This document shows positions 12,023-21,987 of a DNA stretch of 64,000 nucleotides, piece after piece. The stretch comes from a virus: IMG/VR virus record IMGVR_UViG_3300024346_000009, one strand, 5' to 3'. Each line of letters opens with the position of its first letter. The first letter of the stretch is position 1. The position numbers were made by a program, and so were the translations under genes. The notes beneath the pieces are model-generated. The model ran no database searches. It worked only from the letters and a program-made list of their open reading frames with translations, and was not told the origin of the DNA.

Positions 12023-13069
12023 ATGAGATTAGAACCATACACAATTTTCGTCTCTCTATGCTCATACAGAGACCCCCTCCTGTACAGTACAGTCATGTCA
12101 TTGATACAGGGGCGGTGTGGGAGGAATAGAATAGTTATTGGAATATTTGAGCAGATTGTTGCTGAAGACTCACTGCCGGTAAAGTATCCTGATATTAAAG
12201 AAGCTATTGACGCGTACGAAAATAACACACTTAGGTCAGTGAATGGCGGGCCAAGGCCAGCGGAAATTATATATAAACGAATTGATCCCCAATACTCTAA
12301 TGGGGCTGGGTGGGCTAGAGCTATTAACCAATATCAACTATCTCCTGATGAATATGATTTACTTTATCAAATTGACTCCCATATGCTTTTTGATAAAGAT
12401 TGGGATAGGACCCTTATAAGCGATTATGAGGATGCAATTATTAAGTACAATACTAAAAAAGTAATTATAACTGCGCCGTGTAAGTGGTACGATGTTCTTG
12501 AGGATAACAGTATTTCTAAAGGCCCAGAATTATATTATGAAGGTACTAAGGATATAAGTTACAGAGCGACAGGTCACATGTTGTATTATATGACAAATGC
12601 ATTTGTCAATGGGTATATTATATCTGCTCATGGACAAATTGATCCTATAGGACCAGGGATACGGGATGCATTCCACATATGCGCAGGTAATACTGTCTTT
12701 CCGTCACAGTGGGTACGAGATGTAGGTAACAATATTGAAATTCACTTTGAAGGGGAAGAACAGTGGCTTAGTCTGGCTTCTTTTGCAGCAGGGTATCAAC
12801 TATGTCATCCAAAAGAAATTGTAACATACCATTATATGAAATCGGGTAATTATATTACAAAAGTATGGTTTGAACAGGTTGTAAGTAATTTCAGAAGGTC
12901 ACATGATGTATTAAGGTCAATCGCTGAATTATCAAAGTTGATAACAACGTTACCTGAAGATGTTTTAAAGAGATTTTATGAATATTCAGGAATTGATTAT
13001 ATAAATAAAACTGTAGATCAGCGGGCTCTACATCCCCATCCCCCTTTTACCCTACCGCCAAAAGAATAA
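12023..13069 (+). CDS. Glycosyltransferase, GT60/Gnt1-like (polypeptide/hydroxyproline GlcNAc transferase family)
   Basis: IFVSLCSYRDP, GAGWAR, QIDSHMLFDKDWD (DxH) and FEGEE motifs. Confidence 0.75.
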   Translation: MRLEPYTIFVSLCSYRDPLLYSTVMSLIQGRCGRNRIVIGIFEQIVAEDSLPVKYPDIKEAIDAYENNTLRSVNGGPRPAEIIYKRIDPQYSNGAGWARAINQYQLSPDEYDLLYQIDSHMLFDKDWDRTLISDYEDAIIKYNTKKVIITAPCKWYDVLEDNSISKGPELYYEGTKDISYRATGHMLYYMTNAFVNGYIISAHGQIDPIGPGIRDAFHICAGNTVFPSQWVRDVGNNIEIHFEGEEQWLSLASFAAGYQLCHPKEIVTYHYMKSGNYITKVWFEQVVSNFRRSHDVLRSIAELSKLITTLPEDVLKRFYEYSGIDYINKTVDQRALHPHPPFTLPPKE

Positions 13070-16804: not shown

Positions 16805-17064
16805 ATGATGACGCTGAAAAGTTGACGGACGTATTGGTTATTACCAAGCGGTTTAGATCACCAAATGAGTTTAGTATCTATATTGATGAGATGGTTGCCA
16901 GTAACGGGATCAAGTACATGGATGCCGTTATAGGTTACTGTAATGAGAAGGATATTGAGATAGATAGTATCGGTCCTTTAATTAATCAGAAACTTAGAGA
17001 AAAGATTCAGATGGAGGCCGAGCAAGAGAATATGATCAAACCTAGAGGCCATCTACCTATATGA
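16801..17064 (+). CDS. Late transcription coactivator (T4 gp33-like)
   Basis: FSIYIDEMV...YMDAVIGYC...LINQKLREKIQMEA; synteny 33-59-32. Start moved to the ATG at 16801. Confidence 0.85.
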   Translation: MNDDAEKLTDVLVITKRFRSPNEFSIYIDEMVASNGIKYMDAVIGYCNEKDIEIDSIGPLINQKLREKIQMEAEQENMIKPRGHLPI

Positions 17065-17672
17065 TTGCTATGGAACCGTTTTCCGTCTATAAGTATTACC
17101 TCGCCCTACGACTTCACTTCACCACCGAAGGGTACGATGTGATTGCGCAGCAAGGGAGAGTGAGAGCGTCAAAGCAAGCGTTCTTAAAGCGTAAGGATTT
17201 ATTATCAATACGTAAAGTGGCGGAGACGTACTCAGATAAAGATATAGTTGACTTCCTTGTTGCCAATTTTATATCGGGTGATAGGTGGGGTGGTATATTT
17301 GATGTGGAATCAAGAGAGAGGTATATTAGTTGGAAGAAGCGTATAGAATCTATAGCGTATAATTTTGAAAAAGAGTTAAACAAAGCTGTCCTCTACGCAG
17401 AAAAAAATGGGATTACATTCTTTGATTTATTCGTGACTGGGGATAACCAGCATCCATATATAATCAAGATGTTTCTAAGAAATGAGATATCTATTGAAAC
17501 TCTTGTTATCCTAAATAAATTAAATAGCTTCATTGAGAAGTTTGACGTGGATTTGAAAGATGATTTAGTATGGCCAGATGTTTCAAGAGTAATTAGAAAA
17601 TATTCACCATTCCTTAATATAAAAAAAGATAAGTACTATGCCATATACCACAGATCAATTGGATCAAACTAA
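17061..17672 (+). CDS. Helicase loader (T4 gp59-like)
   Basis: YKYYLALRLHFT..YD, FLVANF, ISIETLVIL, KYSPFL; synteny. Confidence 0.88.
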   Translation: MIAMEPFSVYKYYLALRLHFTTEGYDVIAQQGRVRASKQAFLKRKDLLSIRKVAETYSDKDIVDFLVANFISGDRWGGIFDVESRERYISWKKRIESIAYNFEKELNKAVLYAEKNGITFFDLFVTGDNQHPYIIKMFLRNEISIETLVILNKLNSFIEKFDVDLKDDLVWPDVSRVIRKYSPFLNIKKDKYYAIYHRSIGSN

Positions 17673-18113: not shown

Positions 18114-19004
18114 ATGGCAATGGATTTTAATACAATGAAAACCGCTCGTGGTGGTTTCGATAGCCTGATGAAGGAAGTCGAGAAGATTGCAACACCACAA
18201 AATCAAGACAACGCAAAAGATGATCGCTTCTGGCAACCAGAGGTAGATAAGGCCGGTAACGGCTATGCAGTCATCCGCTTTCTTCCGCCTCCTAAGGGTG
18301 AAGATCTTCCATGGGTTCGTGTTTGGAATCATGGATTTCAAGGTCCTACAGGAAAGTGGTACATCGAGAACTCACTCACAACATTAAGTAAACCTGATCC
18401 TGTATCAGAACTTAATACCGAGTTGTGGAATACAGGTCTTGAGTCTAACAAGGATATTGTACGCAAACAAAAGCGTCGATTGACTTATGTTTCAAACATC
18501 TACGTCGTTAAAGACCCTGCACATCCTGAGAACGAAGGTAAAGTATTTCTTTACAAGTTCGGTAAGAAGATCTTTGATAAGATTAAAGATGTGATGCAGC
18601 CTCAGTACGAAGATGAAACCCCTATCAACCCCTTCGACTTCTGGAAGGGCGCTAACTTCAAGTTGAAGATTCGTAATCTTGAAGGATATCGTAACTACGA
18701 TAAGTCTGAGTTTGATAGTCTTTCTGTTCTATCTGAAGATGATGACGCACTTCAAACTACCTGGGGTAAGCAACATTCTTTAGTTGAGTTTCTTGACCCT
18801 AAGAACTTTAAGTCGTATGATGAACTTAAATCTAAACTTCAAATGGTCTTGACTGCAACAGGTTCAGCACCTAGAGCAGAAGAGTTATCATTGGAAAGTA
18901 TGCCCCGACCTGTACCAGCAAAAGCAGCTTCGAAGAAGGAAGTTGATTTTGACGATGCAGAGGGTTCCCTATCGTACTTCGCCAAGCTGGCGAATGATGA
19001 TTAA
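18114..19004 (+). CDS. ssDNA-binding protein (T4 gp32-like)
   Basis: DDRFW..DKAGNGYAVIRFLP, WYIENSLTT, YKFGKKIFDKI, NYDKSEF, acidic tail. Confidence 0.96.
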   Translation: MAMDFNTMKTARGGFDSLMKEVEKIATPQNQDNAKDDRFWQPEVDKAGNGYAVIRFLPPPKGEDLPWVRVWNHGFQGPTGKWYIENSLTTLSKPDPVSELNTELWNTGLESNKDIVRKQKRRLTYVSNIYVVKDPAHPENEGKVFLYKFGKKIFDKIKDVMQPQYEDETPINPFDFWKGANFKLKIRNLEGYRNYDKSEFDSLSVLSEDDDALQTTWGKQHSLVEFLDPKNFKSYDELKSKLQMVLTATGSAPRAEELSLESMPRPVPAKAASKKEVDFDDAEGSLSYFAKLANDD

Positions 19005-19080
19005 TTAGGTAGTCTTAGCCTCCTCCAGGGCACTCGTTACCTTAGTAACCCAGGCCCTGGTCCGGTGACGAGCTAGTTAA
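19001..19080 (+). other. Structured RNA element (pseudoknot-like) between gp32 and the small secreted protein
   Basis: CCAGGGC (19025-31) pairs with GCCCTGG (19054-60), interleaved with CTCGTTACC (19033-41) pairing with GGTGACGAG (19064-72). GC-rich island in AT-rich DNA. Confidence 0.55.
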
Positions 19081-19119
19081 ATTTTGTGTTTAACTTTTAT
19101 TTAAATTTTGGAGTTTTTT

Positions 19120-19332
19120 ATGAAGACAATTATCGCAATTATTACTACCCTGTTCGCCTTGAGTTCTTTTGCTGCTGAGCCAGCTAAGAAAGAAGAAGCA
19201 AAGCCTGCTGCTAAAGCTGCCGCCGCTCCTGCTGCGCCAGCCGCTAAAGCTGCTCCTGCCGCGGCTCCTGCTGCACCAGCAGCACCAGCTGCCGCTAAGA
19301 AAGACGAAAAGAAGCCTGAAGCAAAAAAGTAA
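19120..19332 (+). CDS. Small secreted Ala/Pro/Lys-rich protein; probable -1 frameshift extension to 19436
   Basis: GGAG SD; signal peptide MKTIIAIITTLFALSSFA; ends GCA AAA AAG TAA. Confidence 0.8.
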   Translation: MKTIIAIITTLFALSSFAAEPAKKEEAKPAAKAAAAPAAPAAKAAPAAAPAAPAAPAAAKKDEKKPEAKK

Positions 19333-19434
19333 AGCGGCCTTGCAAAGCTGGGCAAACTGCGGCTGACGGCTGTAGAGTTGTCAAGAAGGCCGTGAAGAAA
19401 CCAGCTAAGAAGTCTACGAAAGTAGATAAGAAGT

Positions 19435-19465
19435 AAAAAAAGGGACTTTCGGGTCCCTTTTTCTT
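19435..19465. terminator. Bidirectional intrinsic terminator between convergent operons
   Basis: A-tract, AGGGAC-TTTCGG-GTCCCT, T-tract. Confidence 0.88.
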
Positions 19466-21987
19466 TAGTATACCGCTATCTTATTTGAGTACCTATCGAG
19501 CGCAGATCCTGTATATTCCGGTCGTGGTGTAGGCTTAGATGGCATAAACTTTGTAGTATTATTACTACTAACGTTATTAGATACAACGGTATTATTAGCA
19601 CCACCCTTAGATGCATCTCTTTCCATATCGGCGTTTTCGGTAGAAGTTTTAGCAACATCTTTTCCGGTTAGAATAGGGGAACCTTTACCAACATTACCCT
19701 CAACATCTAGGGTTGATGGGGCAAGCGCTTGAGCTCTTGCTTCTTTTATCTCTGTTAATTTCTTTCTAGCACCTTCAACATCACCTTTTTTATTAAGTTC
19801 TTGAAGTTGATTATATTCCTGTTTAGTTACTTCAGTGTCATATTCTGCACTATCACCACCCGTACCGCTCATCTCACTAGATACTTTATAGGTATCTTTA
19901 CCAAATAGACCACCAGAAATTCTCTGGCCAAGCATGCTTCCGTAATTAGCTTCGGTCTTGTTGATTTGTTTACCTTCAACTTTACCTTCTACCACTTTCT
20001 CATCAGATGATGTACCTAAAAAGCTGCCTGATTCTTTACCCTTTGCAGTAAACAAACCACCAAGGAATGTACTACCGAGTACAGACTTTTGTGCTGTGAC
20101 CCCTTCTTTATTACTAGCTGTTGAGGTAGTTGCCTCTAACCCAGGTCCTCGAGATATTGATTTATCGCTAGTAGCCACTTCACCTGTACTACTTACCATT
20201 TGATCAGCCATGGCAACACCCTTTGCCTGATCGTTTAAACCTATACCGCTGTTATAAACACCCTTAACCTTATCACCAATACCACCGAAGAAGTCTCCAG
20301 CTGCATTAATAGCTTTGCCGCCGTATTCCCCAACAACCTTACCTGCTTTAGATCCAGCAAATGCTCCTAGGGCTCCGCCTGCTATACCACCGATAGCTGT
20401 ACCAACACCTGGTACTATTGAACCAATTGTAGCACCGAGGGAGGCACCAGCAATAGCTCCGGCTGCCATACCAGTACCTTCACCTATTGCGCCACTCTTT
20501 TCAACAGTAGCTGTATTACCTATTTCTTTTCTTGCAGCTGCAGCTTCTTCTGGCTTCATTTCACCAGAGTCAAACTTAGCCTGAACCTCTTCCATTTTAG
20601 CTTGCTTACTATCTTCGGCTGCTGTATATCCTTCGTATGCAGTATATGCACCTAGGCCAACTGCTGCTGCTGCACCCAGTACCTTACCTGTATTACTAGT
20701 TGCAAACTTAGCCAGCTTACCGCCCATACTTGCTACCTTACCAGCACCTCCCTTTTTGCCCACCAAATCCATTGCACCTGAAGCTAAGTCACCTACAAGA
20801 GAACCTTTCTCATCCTCTTCTTCTTTCTTCGCCGATGGAGCACCCTTTTGATCGGTAATTTCAGCTGGTGTTTTAGGTGCTAAAGCATCTCGTATTTCTT
20901 TAAGCGTTGTTAGTTGCTCTTTTGTAGTCTCAAGCATCTGCTTAGATAACTCAAGATCACTCTTAGCAGCATCAGCAAGGGCTTCACCTGATGATGTAAC
21001 ATTATCACCTTCTGGGTTAGCAGCCTCTGGTGATTTCTCTGCGGGACTTGATACCTTACCTTCCCGTTCTTTTTTCTTATCCTCTGGTGGCTCCTCGTAC
21101 CCAATTAAATGATCTCTTATCCTGCCAGGGGTCGCTTTTACCTCGTCCTTAAACGTTGCAAAGAAGCCTCTATTATCCGTCTGTTCTTCATCATTTTTTT
21201 CTTTAGGTTCTACCCCACCTGTAATCCCTGCTACACTACTTCTTTCTCTACGTGCTCTTTTAATAGATGTATTTCTACCTTCAGAAGGTCCCTGATCATC
21301 ACCTAAATTACCACCCAAAGCTTCAGCTGTTGCTCCACCAGGTCTAGTTGATGTAACGCTGGTTATTAAATTTAATTTATTATCTTTTCTAGCCCGTTCA
21401 CCCTGCCCAGATAAGGTATCTCTGGCAGTTTCAAAATCTAAAAAGCCACCATCTTTAGATGTCTTGCCTGAGACCTTGCTCTCAATATCTCTACCACTGG
21501 TATTTCTATATTGAGCCGCCTCCTTGTCGTACTCAACACTACCTTCAGTTAATTTTCTTACTAATGAAATCTCTTTTAATTGTTCATCTTGTAACTTATT
21601 AGTGTTTATCCCTATAGCACCCATGGTAGCAACCAGGTGACCACTATCAATAAACTTACCTACATCTGACCCAACATTTTGTACTGCAGCTTTTACGCCT
21701 GTAATAACTTCCTTAAGCCCCTCTAATACCGTAGTTATCCTAGATAATGTATCATTTGCAGTGTCTAGTTGATCTTGAACCTCTATTACATCATCGCTGA
21801 CATCATGTAACCCATCTCTTAAAGAATCTCTTACAGATGAAGTTTCATCTTTTAAGTCACTTAGACTTTCATTGGTTTTATCAATACCTTTGGTAGTTTC
21901 TTTTTGTGCTAAAATCCCACCACCAGTTTGCTCCTTGAGTTTATCAAGGAACGCTTTAAAGCTAGGATCTGCTGATGGAGATTGCAT
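19465..21987 (-). CDS. Tape-measure-like / baseplate hub protein (gp29 position)
   Basis: 840 aa; N-terminal coiled coil and a Gly/Ala-zipper TM region (GAIAGASLGATIGSIVPGVGTAIGG); downstream of gp26/gp51. Confidence 0.6.
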   Translation of the reverse strand: MQSPSADPSFKAFLDKLKEQTGGGILAQKETTKGIDKTNESLSDLKDETSSVRDSLRDGLHDVSDDVIEVQDQLDTANDTLSRITTVLEGLKEVITGVKAAVQNVGSDVGKFIDSGHLVATMGAIGINTNKLQDEQLKEISLVRKLTEGSVEYDKEAAQYRNTSGRDIESKVSGKTSKDGGFLDFETARDTLSGQGERARKDNKLNLITSVTSTRPGGATAEALGGNLGDDQGPSEGRNTSIKRARRERSSVAGITGGVEPKEKNDEEQTDNRGFFATFKDEVKATPGRIRDHLIGYEEPPEDKKKEREGKVSSPAEKSPEAANPEGDNVTSSGEALADAAKSDLELSKQMLETTKEQLTTLKEIRDALAPKTPAEITDQKGAPSAKKEEEDEKGSLVGDLASGAMDLVGKKGGAGKVASMGGKLAKFATSNTGKVLGAAAAVGLGAYTAYEGYTAAEDSKQAKMEEVQAKFDSGEMKPEEAAAARKEIGNTATVEKSGAIGEGTGMAAGAIAGASLGATIGSIVPGVGTAIGGIAGGALGAFAGSKAGKVVGEYGGKAINAAGDFFGGIGDKVKGVYNSGIGLNDQAKGVAMADQMVSSTGEVATSDKSISRGPGLEATTSTASNKEGVTAQKSVLGSTFLGGLFTAKGKESGSFLGTSSDEKVVEGKVEGKQINKTEANYGSMLGQRISGGLFGKDTYKVSSEMSGTGGDSAEYDTEVTKQEYNQLQELNKKGDVEGARKKLTEIKEARAQALAPSTLDVEGNVGKGSPILTGKDVAKTSTENADMERDASKGGANNTVVSNNVSSNNTTKFMPSKPTPRPEYTGSALDRYSNKIAVY

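Follow-up and report, generated by a model that had tools for sequence, protein, structure and literature searches.

A putative ribosomal -1 frameshift links a predicted signal peptide to a conserved cysteine loop in a small gene beside gene 32 of a T4-like phage

The window analysed here is a stretch of viral DNA of 64,000 nucleotides, and the region of interest belongs to the replication module of a T4-like myovirus. The gp59 helicase loader lies at 17061-17672 (PHROG 269, E 1e-56) and gp32 at 18114-19004 (PHROG 224, E 4e-114), the latter sharing about 56% identity with cyanophage gp32. A GC-rich spacer of 115 nt separates gp32 from the ATG (19120) of a small gene. Positions 19005-19075 of this spacer are conserved at the nucleotide level in relatives, also in L002-L006 downstream of gp32, and the 90-95% identity of the flanks continues across them unbroken. 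Their three-frame translations are alike and they have hairpin potential with no T run; this segment could be a gp32 3' element or the leader of the small gene. Beyond the small gene lies a convergent Gly/Ala/Lys-rich ORF of 840 aa (19465-21987, minus strand), which uses the same bidirectional terminator and whose sole matches are weak ones to PHROGs over residues 489-557, namely to a family of unknown function (E 5e-9) and to a tape-measure family (E 4e-5). ARAGORN found no tRNA or tmRNA genes in the window (1-64000). The features of the small gene are as follows.

19110-19113, plus strand: Shine-Dalgarno-like GGAG, 6 nt ahead of the ATG at 19120 (sequence reading)
19120-19332, plus strand: 0-frame ORF of 70 aa and TAA, with signal peptide and Ala/Lys/Pro-rich low-complexity stretch (homologous parts in L005, L006, L088, L102, L142 and others)
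19120-19173, plus strand: predicted Sec signal peptide MKTIIAIITTLFALSSFA, likely cleaved between SFA and AEP (inspection; small residues at -3 and -1)
19323-19329, plus strand: slippery heptamer A AAA AAG in X XXY YYZ phase (identical GCA AAA AAG TAA in 27 of 27 distinct split homologues)
19330-19332, plus strand: 0-frame stop TAA abutting the heptamer ('shifty stop' context), overlapping the -1-frame codons GTA AAG (Val-Lys)
19329-19436, plus strand: -1-frame extension of 35 codons and TAA, with conserved Cys loop and basic tail (codon-position test, dN/dS of 0.04, alignment with in-frame relatives)
19334-19393, plus strand: predicted stimulatory RNA structure, with closing helix 19334-19341/19386-19393 around 19351-19355/19378-19382 and 19357-19364/19368-19375
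19338-19382, plus strand: Cys-loop core PCKAGQTAADGCRVV, with Cys codons at 19341-19343 and 19371-19373
19437-19462, scoring on both strands: bidirectional intrinsic-terminator-like hairpin right after the -1 stop, shared with the convergent 840-aa ORF

The 0-frame product, 70 aa in total, consists of MKTIIAIITTLFALSSFA followed by AEPAKKEEAKPAAK...KKPEAKK. The signal peptide was laid out by eye as MK-TIIAIITTLFAL-SSFA ahead of AEP; inspection found the same layout in 54 of 54 aligned relatives, and a similar n-h-c segment opens every family member. No Cys, and hence no lipobox, lies within or beside it, which speaks against a phage lipoprotein or an o-spanin. The frame ends in GCA (19321) AAA AAG TAA with a run of six A's at 19323-19328. 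From 19329 the -1 frame begins VKRPCKAGQTAADGCRVVKK..., reads in full VKRPCKAGQTAADGCRVVKKAVKKPAKKSTKVDKK and stops at 19434-19436. Upstream, it is closed by a TGA at 19317-19319, three codons before the Val codon GTA (19329), so that entry is possible only at the A run. The heptamer motif by itself is statistically unremarkable, and its significance rests on comparative data: the window holds 26 AAAAAAG sites, five of them in phase with an ORF whose open stretch ahead of the site is 50 codons or longer, and AAAAAAGTAA occurs twice against 0.58 expected. Only the site at 19323-19329 combines an adjacent stop with an open -1 frame of 35 codons. The second AAAAAAGTAA, at 12455-12464 (plus strand), does not stand in A AAA AAG phase with any ORF that has at least 50 open codons ahead of it. 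The initial annotation had described this gene as a secreted AKP-rich protein with a shift site, and all the elements that it named are present, namely GCA AAA AAG TAA, the open -1 frame, the terminator and, in the minimum free energy (MFE) fold, a stem of 19334-19341 with 19386-19393.

With gp32 as the anchor, 80 related IMG/VR loci were fetched; further loci came from scanning viral contigs for the junction pattern and viral and metagenome contigs for the Cys-loop peptide, and removal of duplicates left 70 distinct family sequences. Full-length gp32 lay within the fetched flank in 39 of these 70 loci. The small gene was nearly always beside gp32 where the flank was covered, and directly downstream of it in every gp32-anchored locus possessing the small gene. 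One in-frame small gene, that of L012 (3632-3820, minus strand), adjoins gp32 but is inverted relative to it.

The split arrangement was present in 27 of the 70 sequences and the other 43 encode the protein in one frame, which answers the question whether homologues keep the shift or are all in-frame fusions. In every split sequence (27/27) the junction is GCA AAA AAG TAA, with seven A's in none and other junctions in none, which speaks for A6 in the question raised earlier of A6 versus A7. The 0 frame of the split members ends in ...AKK and a stop, and the -1 frame goes on with V(K/I/T)(R/K)PCK.... The in-frame relatives (n=43) carry a signal peptide and the Cys loop PCKxGQTxxDGCxVVKK in a single frame; their loop follows the pattern (K/R)PCKxGQT(x)xxDxCxxVxK, with a Lys/Glu/Ala/Pro-rich region before it, after it or both. 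L008 (MKYLIALV...AEPKVKKPCKEGQTEEKDGCHEVKKAEKKK) and L002 (MKNIFAIV...AADGPGPKKPCKEGQTEADGCHVVKKAEKKPVEKK...) are examples. The segment ...PKVKKPCKEGQ... of L008 is homologous to the trans-frame junction ...AKKVKRPCKAGQ... of the window, and the homology holds codon for codon (AAG GTA AAG AAG CCT TGT, KVKKPC, in L008; AAA AAA GTA AAG CGG CCT TGC, KKVKRPC, in the window). Where split members have the TAA overlap, the in-frame relatives have the homologous GTA AAR for Val-Lys. The TAA is thus an overlap of conserved Val-Lys codons, which is why the 0-frame stop abuts the heptamer. The 43 in-frame relatives further show the signal peptide and the Cys-pair segment to be parts of a single protein.

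The split members fall into four subgroups: the window/L005/L006/L102 type, the L088/L094 type, the L007/L103/L182 type with an extra Cys pair in the 0-frame part, and the L010/L096 type, whose loop reads CKPDQNPEKDDCHEV. In L007 (3147-3346), L103 and L182 this second pair reads KCDPVKDKTCK, and both isoforms of this type would accordingly carry a disulfide loop. Judged by contig names, the split sequences represent roughly twelve or more metagenome datasets, and the gp32 of split loci is 74-82% identical to that of the window. An identical junction across subgroups and datasets diverged to this extent excludes a repeated homopolymer error. No ATG, GTG or TTG lies in the -1 frame ahead of the Cys loop in any split subgroup, and independent initiation of the tail was rejected on this ground; a free-standing tail would also have no signal peptide, whereas the in-frame proteins invariably carry one ahead of the loop.

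An alignment of 11 split and in-frame sequences showed P, C, K, Q, D, C and V to be invariant, and P, C, K, Q, T and C remained so over 54 sequences. By these alignments the Cys loop is the only conserved module of the family, the AKP-rich part being variable and dispensable. The tail would on this account be the business end of the protein, and the trans-frame product must be made. The shift does add a basic tail with a Cys pair, as was first proposed, but the treatment of that tail as an accessory to the AKP-rich part has to be reversed.

Selection on the -1 frame was assessed in 17 unique split tails, in which 6, 5 and 19 variable columns fall on codon positions 1, 2 and 3 of that frame. 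Pairwise synonymous to non-synonymous codon differences number 734:396 in the -1 frame, against 52:1029 and 170:965 in the two other frames of the same tails. In the split subgroup of the window, 11 of the first 21 tail codons vary and 2 of them change the amino acid; over these codons dN/dS is 0.04 (pairwise means of 0.014 for dN and 0.35 for dS; 15 unique sequences), a figure limited to that subgroup, whose members presumably inherited the split. These patterns show strong purifying selection on the tail and support its translation. Together with the homologues, they also uphold the central reading of the initial annotation, that of a real and retained -1 shift.

The RNA downstream of the heptamer is predicted to fold in the window (MFE -26.6 kcal/mol, z -2.2, for 78 nt from the heptamer) as well as in L006 (-29.6 kcal/mol, z -4.2), L088 (-24.2 kcal/mol, z -4.05), L010 (-19.1 kcal/mol, z -4.1) and L007 (-20.5 kcal/mol, z -1.1). 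A closing helix of 7-9 bp, starting 3-6 nt past the heptamer, was predicted in all four split subgroups. Its strands are CGGCCUU/AAGGCCG in the window type, AGCCUUGU/ACAAGGCU in the L010 type and AGCC-UGUAA/UUACA-GGCU in the L007 type, the register being equal in the first two and displaced by a bulge in the third. Across the predicted structure 82.7% of the cells are paired, against 23-47% when it is slid. One pair is compensatory, being G-C in 15 sequences and A-U in 4 (CGG..GCC versus AAG..GCT). Covariation support is thin: pairs changing on both sides number 2 of 24, the pair-count measures do not exceed the shuffle control, and much of the pairing follows from the conserved codons.

Fold comparison found the closing helix to be absent from the in-frame relatives. 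At similar GC content, the mean longest stem is 7.7 bp in split and 5.4 bp in in-frame members, and the mean MFE is -25.2 and -16.7 kcal/mol, respectively. Synonymous-codon shuffles gave z values of -2.1 to -5.4 (typically about -3.2) for split members and about -2.1 for in-frame ones, which means that part of this signal is compositional; the two sets differ with a Mann-Whitney p of 6e-4, a value that ignores kinship among the sequences. The spacer from heptamer to helix, 4 nt in the window and 3-6 nt in relatives, is short against the usual 5-9 nt. A stimulatory role of the predicted downstream structure is plausible. The site had been called dnaX-type, and this holds for the heptamer and the predicted downstream structure but not for the upstream stimulator, as an SD-like element ahead of the heptamer is not conserved among the relatives and the L007 type has no purine-rich element there. 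A search of Rfam with cmscan at E up to 10 returned no frameshift element, and nothing reached the gathering score.

As for the product, it is probably a Sec-secreted, disulfide-closed and highly basic mini-peptide on a disordered tether, in which the C-x9-C loop flanked by lysines appears to be the conserved functional module. An AlphaFold2 model of the in-frame protein of L008, built from an alignment of 54 sequences, has a mean pLDDT of 56.5, with a helix at residues 2-19 (the signal peptide); the linker is disordered and the loop shows at most a weak two-strand hairpin. Neither the 0-frame ORF nor the tail nor any of three in-frame homologues had a Pfam or PHROGs hit at E ≤0.01 or at the curated cut-off. 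Among GenBank phages tblastn found no match to the tail and none in a cultured phage, and blastn of the region returned low-complexity hits only. A scan of the GTDB species-representative genomes for the Cys loop detected no relatives, so that no host homologue is evident. In a large protein database at least 259 clusters were matched, all of them 'hypothetical' or bearing low-complexity misnomers such as TonB and FkpA. A profile HMM of the Cys loop, run against 1.84 billion representative proteins, recovered only 17 clusters, all of 35-92 aa, which shows that the loop was never part of a larger annotated protein. A limited literature search on this gene family found nothing.

On the gp32 tree, split and in-frame forms are interspersed. 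Parsimony requires 5 changes between them, of which at least 3 are forced by well-supported branches, and a single origin of the split on this tree was therefore rejected. Cassette exchange is the most likely source of these changes. The split L147 and the in-frame L126 share 95% identity over gp32, the spacer and the start of the signal peptide, after which homology breaks and resumes at only 73% over the Cys loop. Between the split L006 and the in-frame L004, identity is likewise 90% as far as the signal peptide, and 90% once more from the terminator on. The mature part therefore behaves as an exchangeable cassette with two allele types, one in-frame (signal peptide, loop, KEAP tail) and one split (signal peptide, AP-rich linker, frameshift, loop, basic tail). 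The split L010 and the in-frame L008 are sisters on the gp32 tree and have one common architecture, which implies either that the split arose more than once or that in-frame forms are revertants in which the A run was lost on the way. As no A7 revertant occurs in the 27 split sequences, the split seems to be maintained.

Taken together, we favour, at a probability of roughly 0.75, a ribosomal -1 frameshift that yields a secreted Cys-loop peptide, made as a precursor of 105 aa, along with a loop-less product of 70 aa. Translation would run in frame 0 through the signal peptide and the AKP-rich linker, and a fraction of the ribosomes would slip back one base at A AAA AAG (19323-19329). The slip might proceed by tandem slippage of two tRNA-Lys, or by the P-site tRNA-Lys moving from AAG to AAA with TAA waiting in the A site, and the structured RNA from 4 nt downstream probably aids it. 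Slipped ribosomes would continue with Val-Lys-Arg-Pro-Cys... to the stop at 19434-19436, giving the 105-aa precursor and, after cleavage of the signal peptide, about 87 aa. Those that do not slip would stop at TAA and leave a 70-aa precursor, about 52 aa when mature, which lacks the Cys loop. On comparative grounds the logic of a ribosomal -1 shift is well supported.

The arrangement might instead be a tolerated leaky indel, in which the loss of one base from an ancestral A7 was survivable since A AAA AAG followed by a stop tends to shift by itself. Only the trans-frame protein would then matter, with no function for the 70-aa product or for the isoform ratio, a case akin to the compensatory frameshifting described in PMC5009743. 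We consider this unlikely. It has in its favour that the in-frame relatives manage with a single-chain protein, that the conserved GTA AAR codons account for both the 0-frame stop and the heptamer's G, and that the 0-frame product holds only low-complexity sequence that varies by indels. Against it, four diverged subgroups have kept the split, none of the 27 distinct sequences has returned to A7, and the split is accompanied by a stronger predicted downstream RNA structure that the in-frame relatives lack. Moreover, it forms a distinct allele with a long AP-rich linker, which replaces the in-frame allele between flanks of 90-95% identity. This suggests that the arrangement is maintained rather than merely tolerated.

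Somewhat less probable still is transcriptional slippage, whereby an extra A inserted by RNA polymerase at the A6 run gives some mRNAs with A7, which encode the same 105-aa fusion in a single frame. Bacterial RNA polymerase slips productively at homopolymers of about 8-9 or more A or T residues. The shift does sit at a homopolymer and insertion of an A would give exactly the 105-aa product, but neither the window nor any of the 27 split homologues departs from A6, which is short of such a long homopolymer, and transcriptional slippage is disfavoured for this reason. The X XXY YYZ phase, the adjacent stop and a predicted structure 3-6 nt downstream also fit a ribosomal signal. Some bacterial and IS genes do use transcriptional slippage (PMC5009743). 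Finally, the reading of the A6 run as a homopolymer sequencing error, or of the gene as a decaying pseudogene with an untranslated tail, is very improbable and largely refuted: homopolymers are error-prone and one genome cannot separate A6 from A7, but many independent assemblies repeat the junction, 27 distinct sequences in all, and none of these shows A7, dN/dS is 0.04 over the first 21 tail codons in the split subgroup of the window, and the terminator is placed after the -1 stop, not the 0-frame stop. In the relatives inspected, too, a hairpin and T run directly follow the stop of the Cys-loop frame and not that of the 0 frame.

Given its recombination-prone locus, the periplasm or envelope is the probable place of action of this predicted secreted peptide. 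The roles put forward for it, superinfection exclusion and envelope remodelling, are guesses, like lysis control. A more elaborate possibility, which we regard as doubtful, is that the shift is a tuned device in a hypervariable, envelope-directed cassette. It would deliver a fixed ratio of Cys-loop peptide to loop-less AKP-rich peptide (e.g. an active form and its competitor or shield), with the ratio set by the state of host tRNA-Lys and release factors. Split and in-frame alleles would then be swapped by recombination under phage-host or phage-phage conflict, as in superinfection exclusion or lysis timing.

To our knowledge, few recoding events are known in tailed phages beyond the tail-chaperone frameshift and T4 gene 60 bypassing, and we know of none in a secreted accessory phage peptide. 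The A AAA AAG class of -1 recoding is itself known, and what is new here is its occurrence in an uncharacterised, cassette-like phage gene family. The family comes with natural controls, in that the same protein exists as split and in-frame alleles amid flanks of 90-95% identity and the RNA structure tracks the split. With these controls, the fixation of a frameshift indel and its gain of stimulators can be studied in a compact system. Standard gene callers truncate the family, as the conserved domain is missed in every split member. Besides, a fast-swapping, predicted secreted peptide beside gene 32 is a candidate factor at the phage-host interface.

Among known systems, dnaX and the IS3 family use A AAA AAG, a -1 site proven in bacteria (PMC4066793; PMC5009743), whose efficiency has been attributed to the weak pairing of tRNA-Lys with AAG (Tsuchihashi and Brown 1992, as cited in PMC4066793). 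A stop codon placed immediately 3' of a slippery run promotes the shift, according to the account of Weiss et al. 1987 given in PMC5009743. The phage gene displays the marks of bacterial -1 sites, namely the phase of the heptamer, a coding -1 frame that has no start of its own, and a conserved site together with unsplit homologues. With E. coli dnaX (tau/gamma) it shares the identical heptamer in the same phase, a predicted downstream structure and, in the phage as a prediction, two products with a common N-terminus. However, the shifted frame of dnaX stops almost at once and shortens the protein, whereas in the phage gene it is the 0 frame that stops at once and the shift that adds a conserved domain. 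The upstream SD-like stimulator of dnaX is also not conserved in the phage gene, there is no match to the dnaX family of Rfam, and the two gene families are unrelated.

The orfA-orfB pairs of the IS3 family (IS911, IS150 and IS3, with A AAA AAG or A AAA AAA and a stem-loop or pseudoknot) resemble the phage gene in that a -1 shift at an A-rich heptamer joins an upstream ORF to a downstream one lacking its own start and so makes the functional protein, with a structure downstream that is predicted in the phage gene. Reduced synonymous variation has been described around IS3-type frameshift sites (PMC4066793). Unlike these, the phage gene is not a mobile element, its product of about 100 aa begins with a signal peptide, and its 0-frame stop abuts the heptamer. 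The tail assembly chaperones of phages (lambda G/GT, P2 E/E') offer another conserved phage -1 shift with a short and a C-terminally extended product, but these are cytoplasmic chaperones whose genes are flanked by those for the tail tube and the tape measure, whereas the small gene lies beside gp32 and encodes a predicted secreted peptide. The 'shifty stop' and compensatory frameshifting cases (Weiss et al. 1987 and the G run of herpesvirus TK, both as related in PMC5009743) come close in having a slippery run right before a stop and in the rescue of a homopolymer indel; the phage arrangement differs from them in being fixed and conserved in many natural lineages, along with a specific predicted RNA structure.
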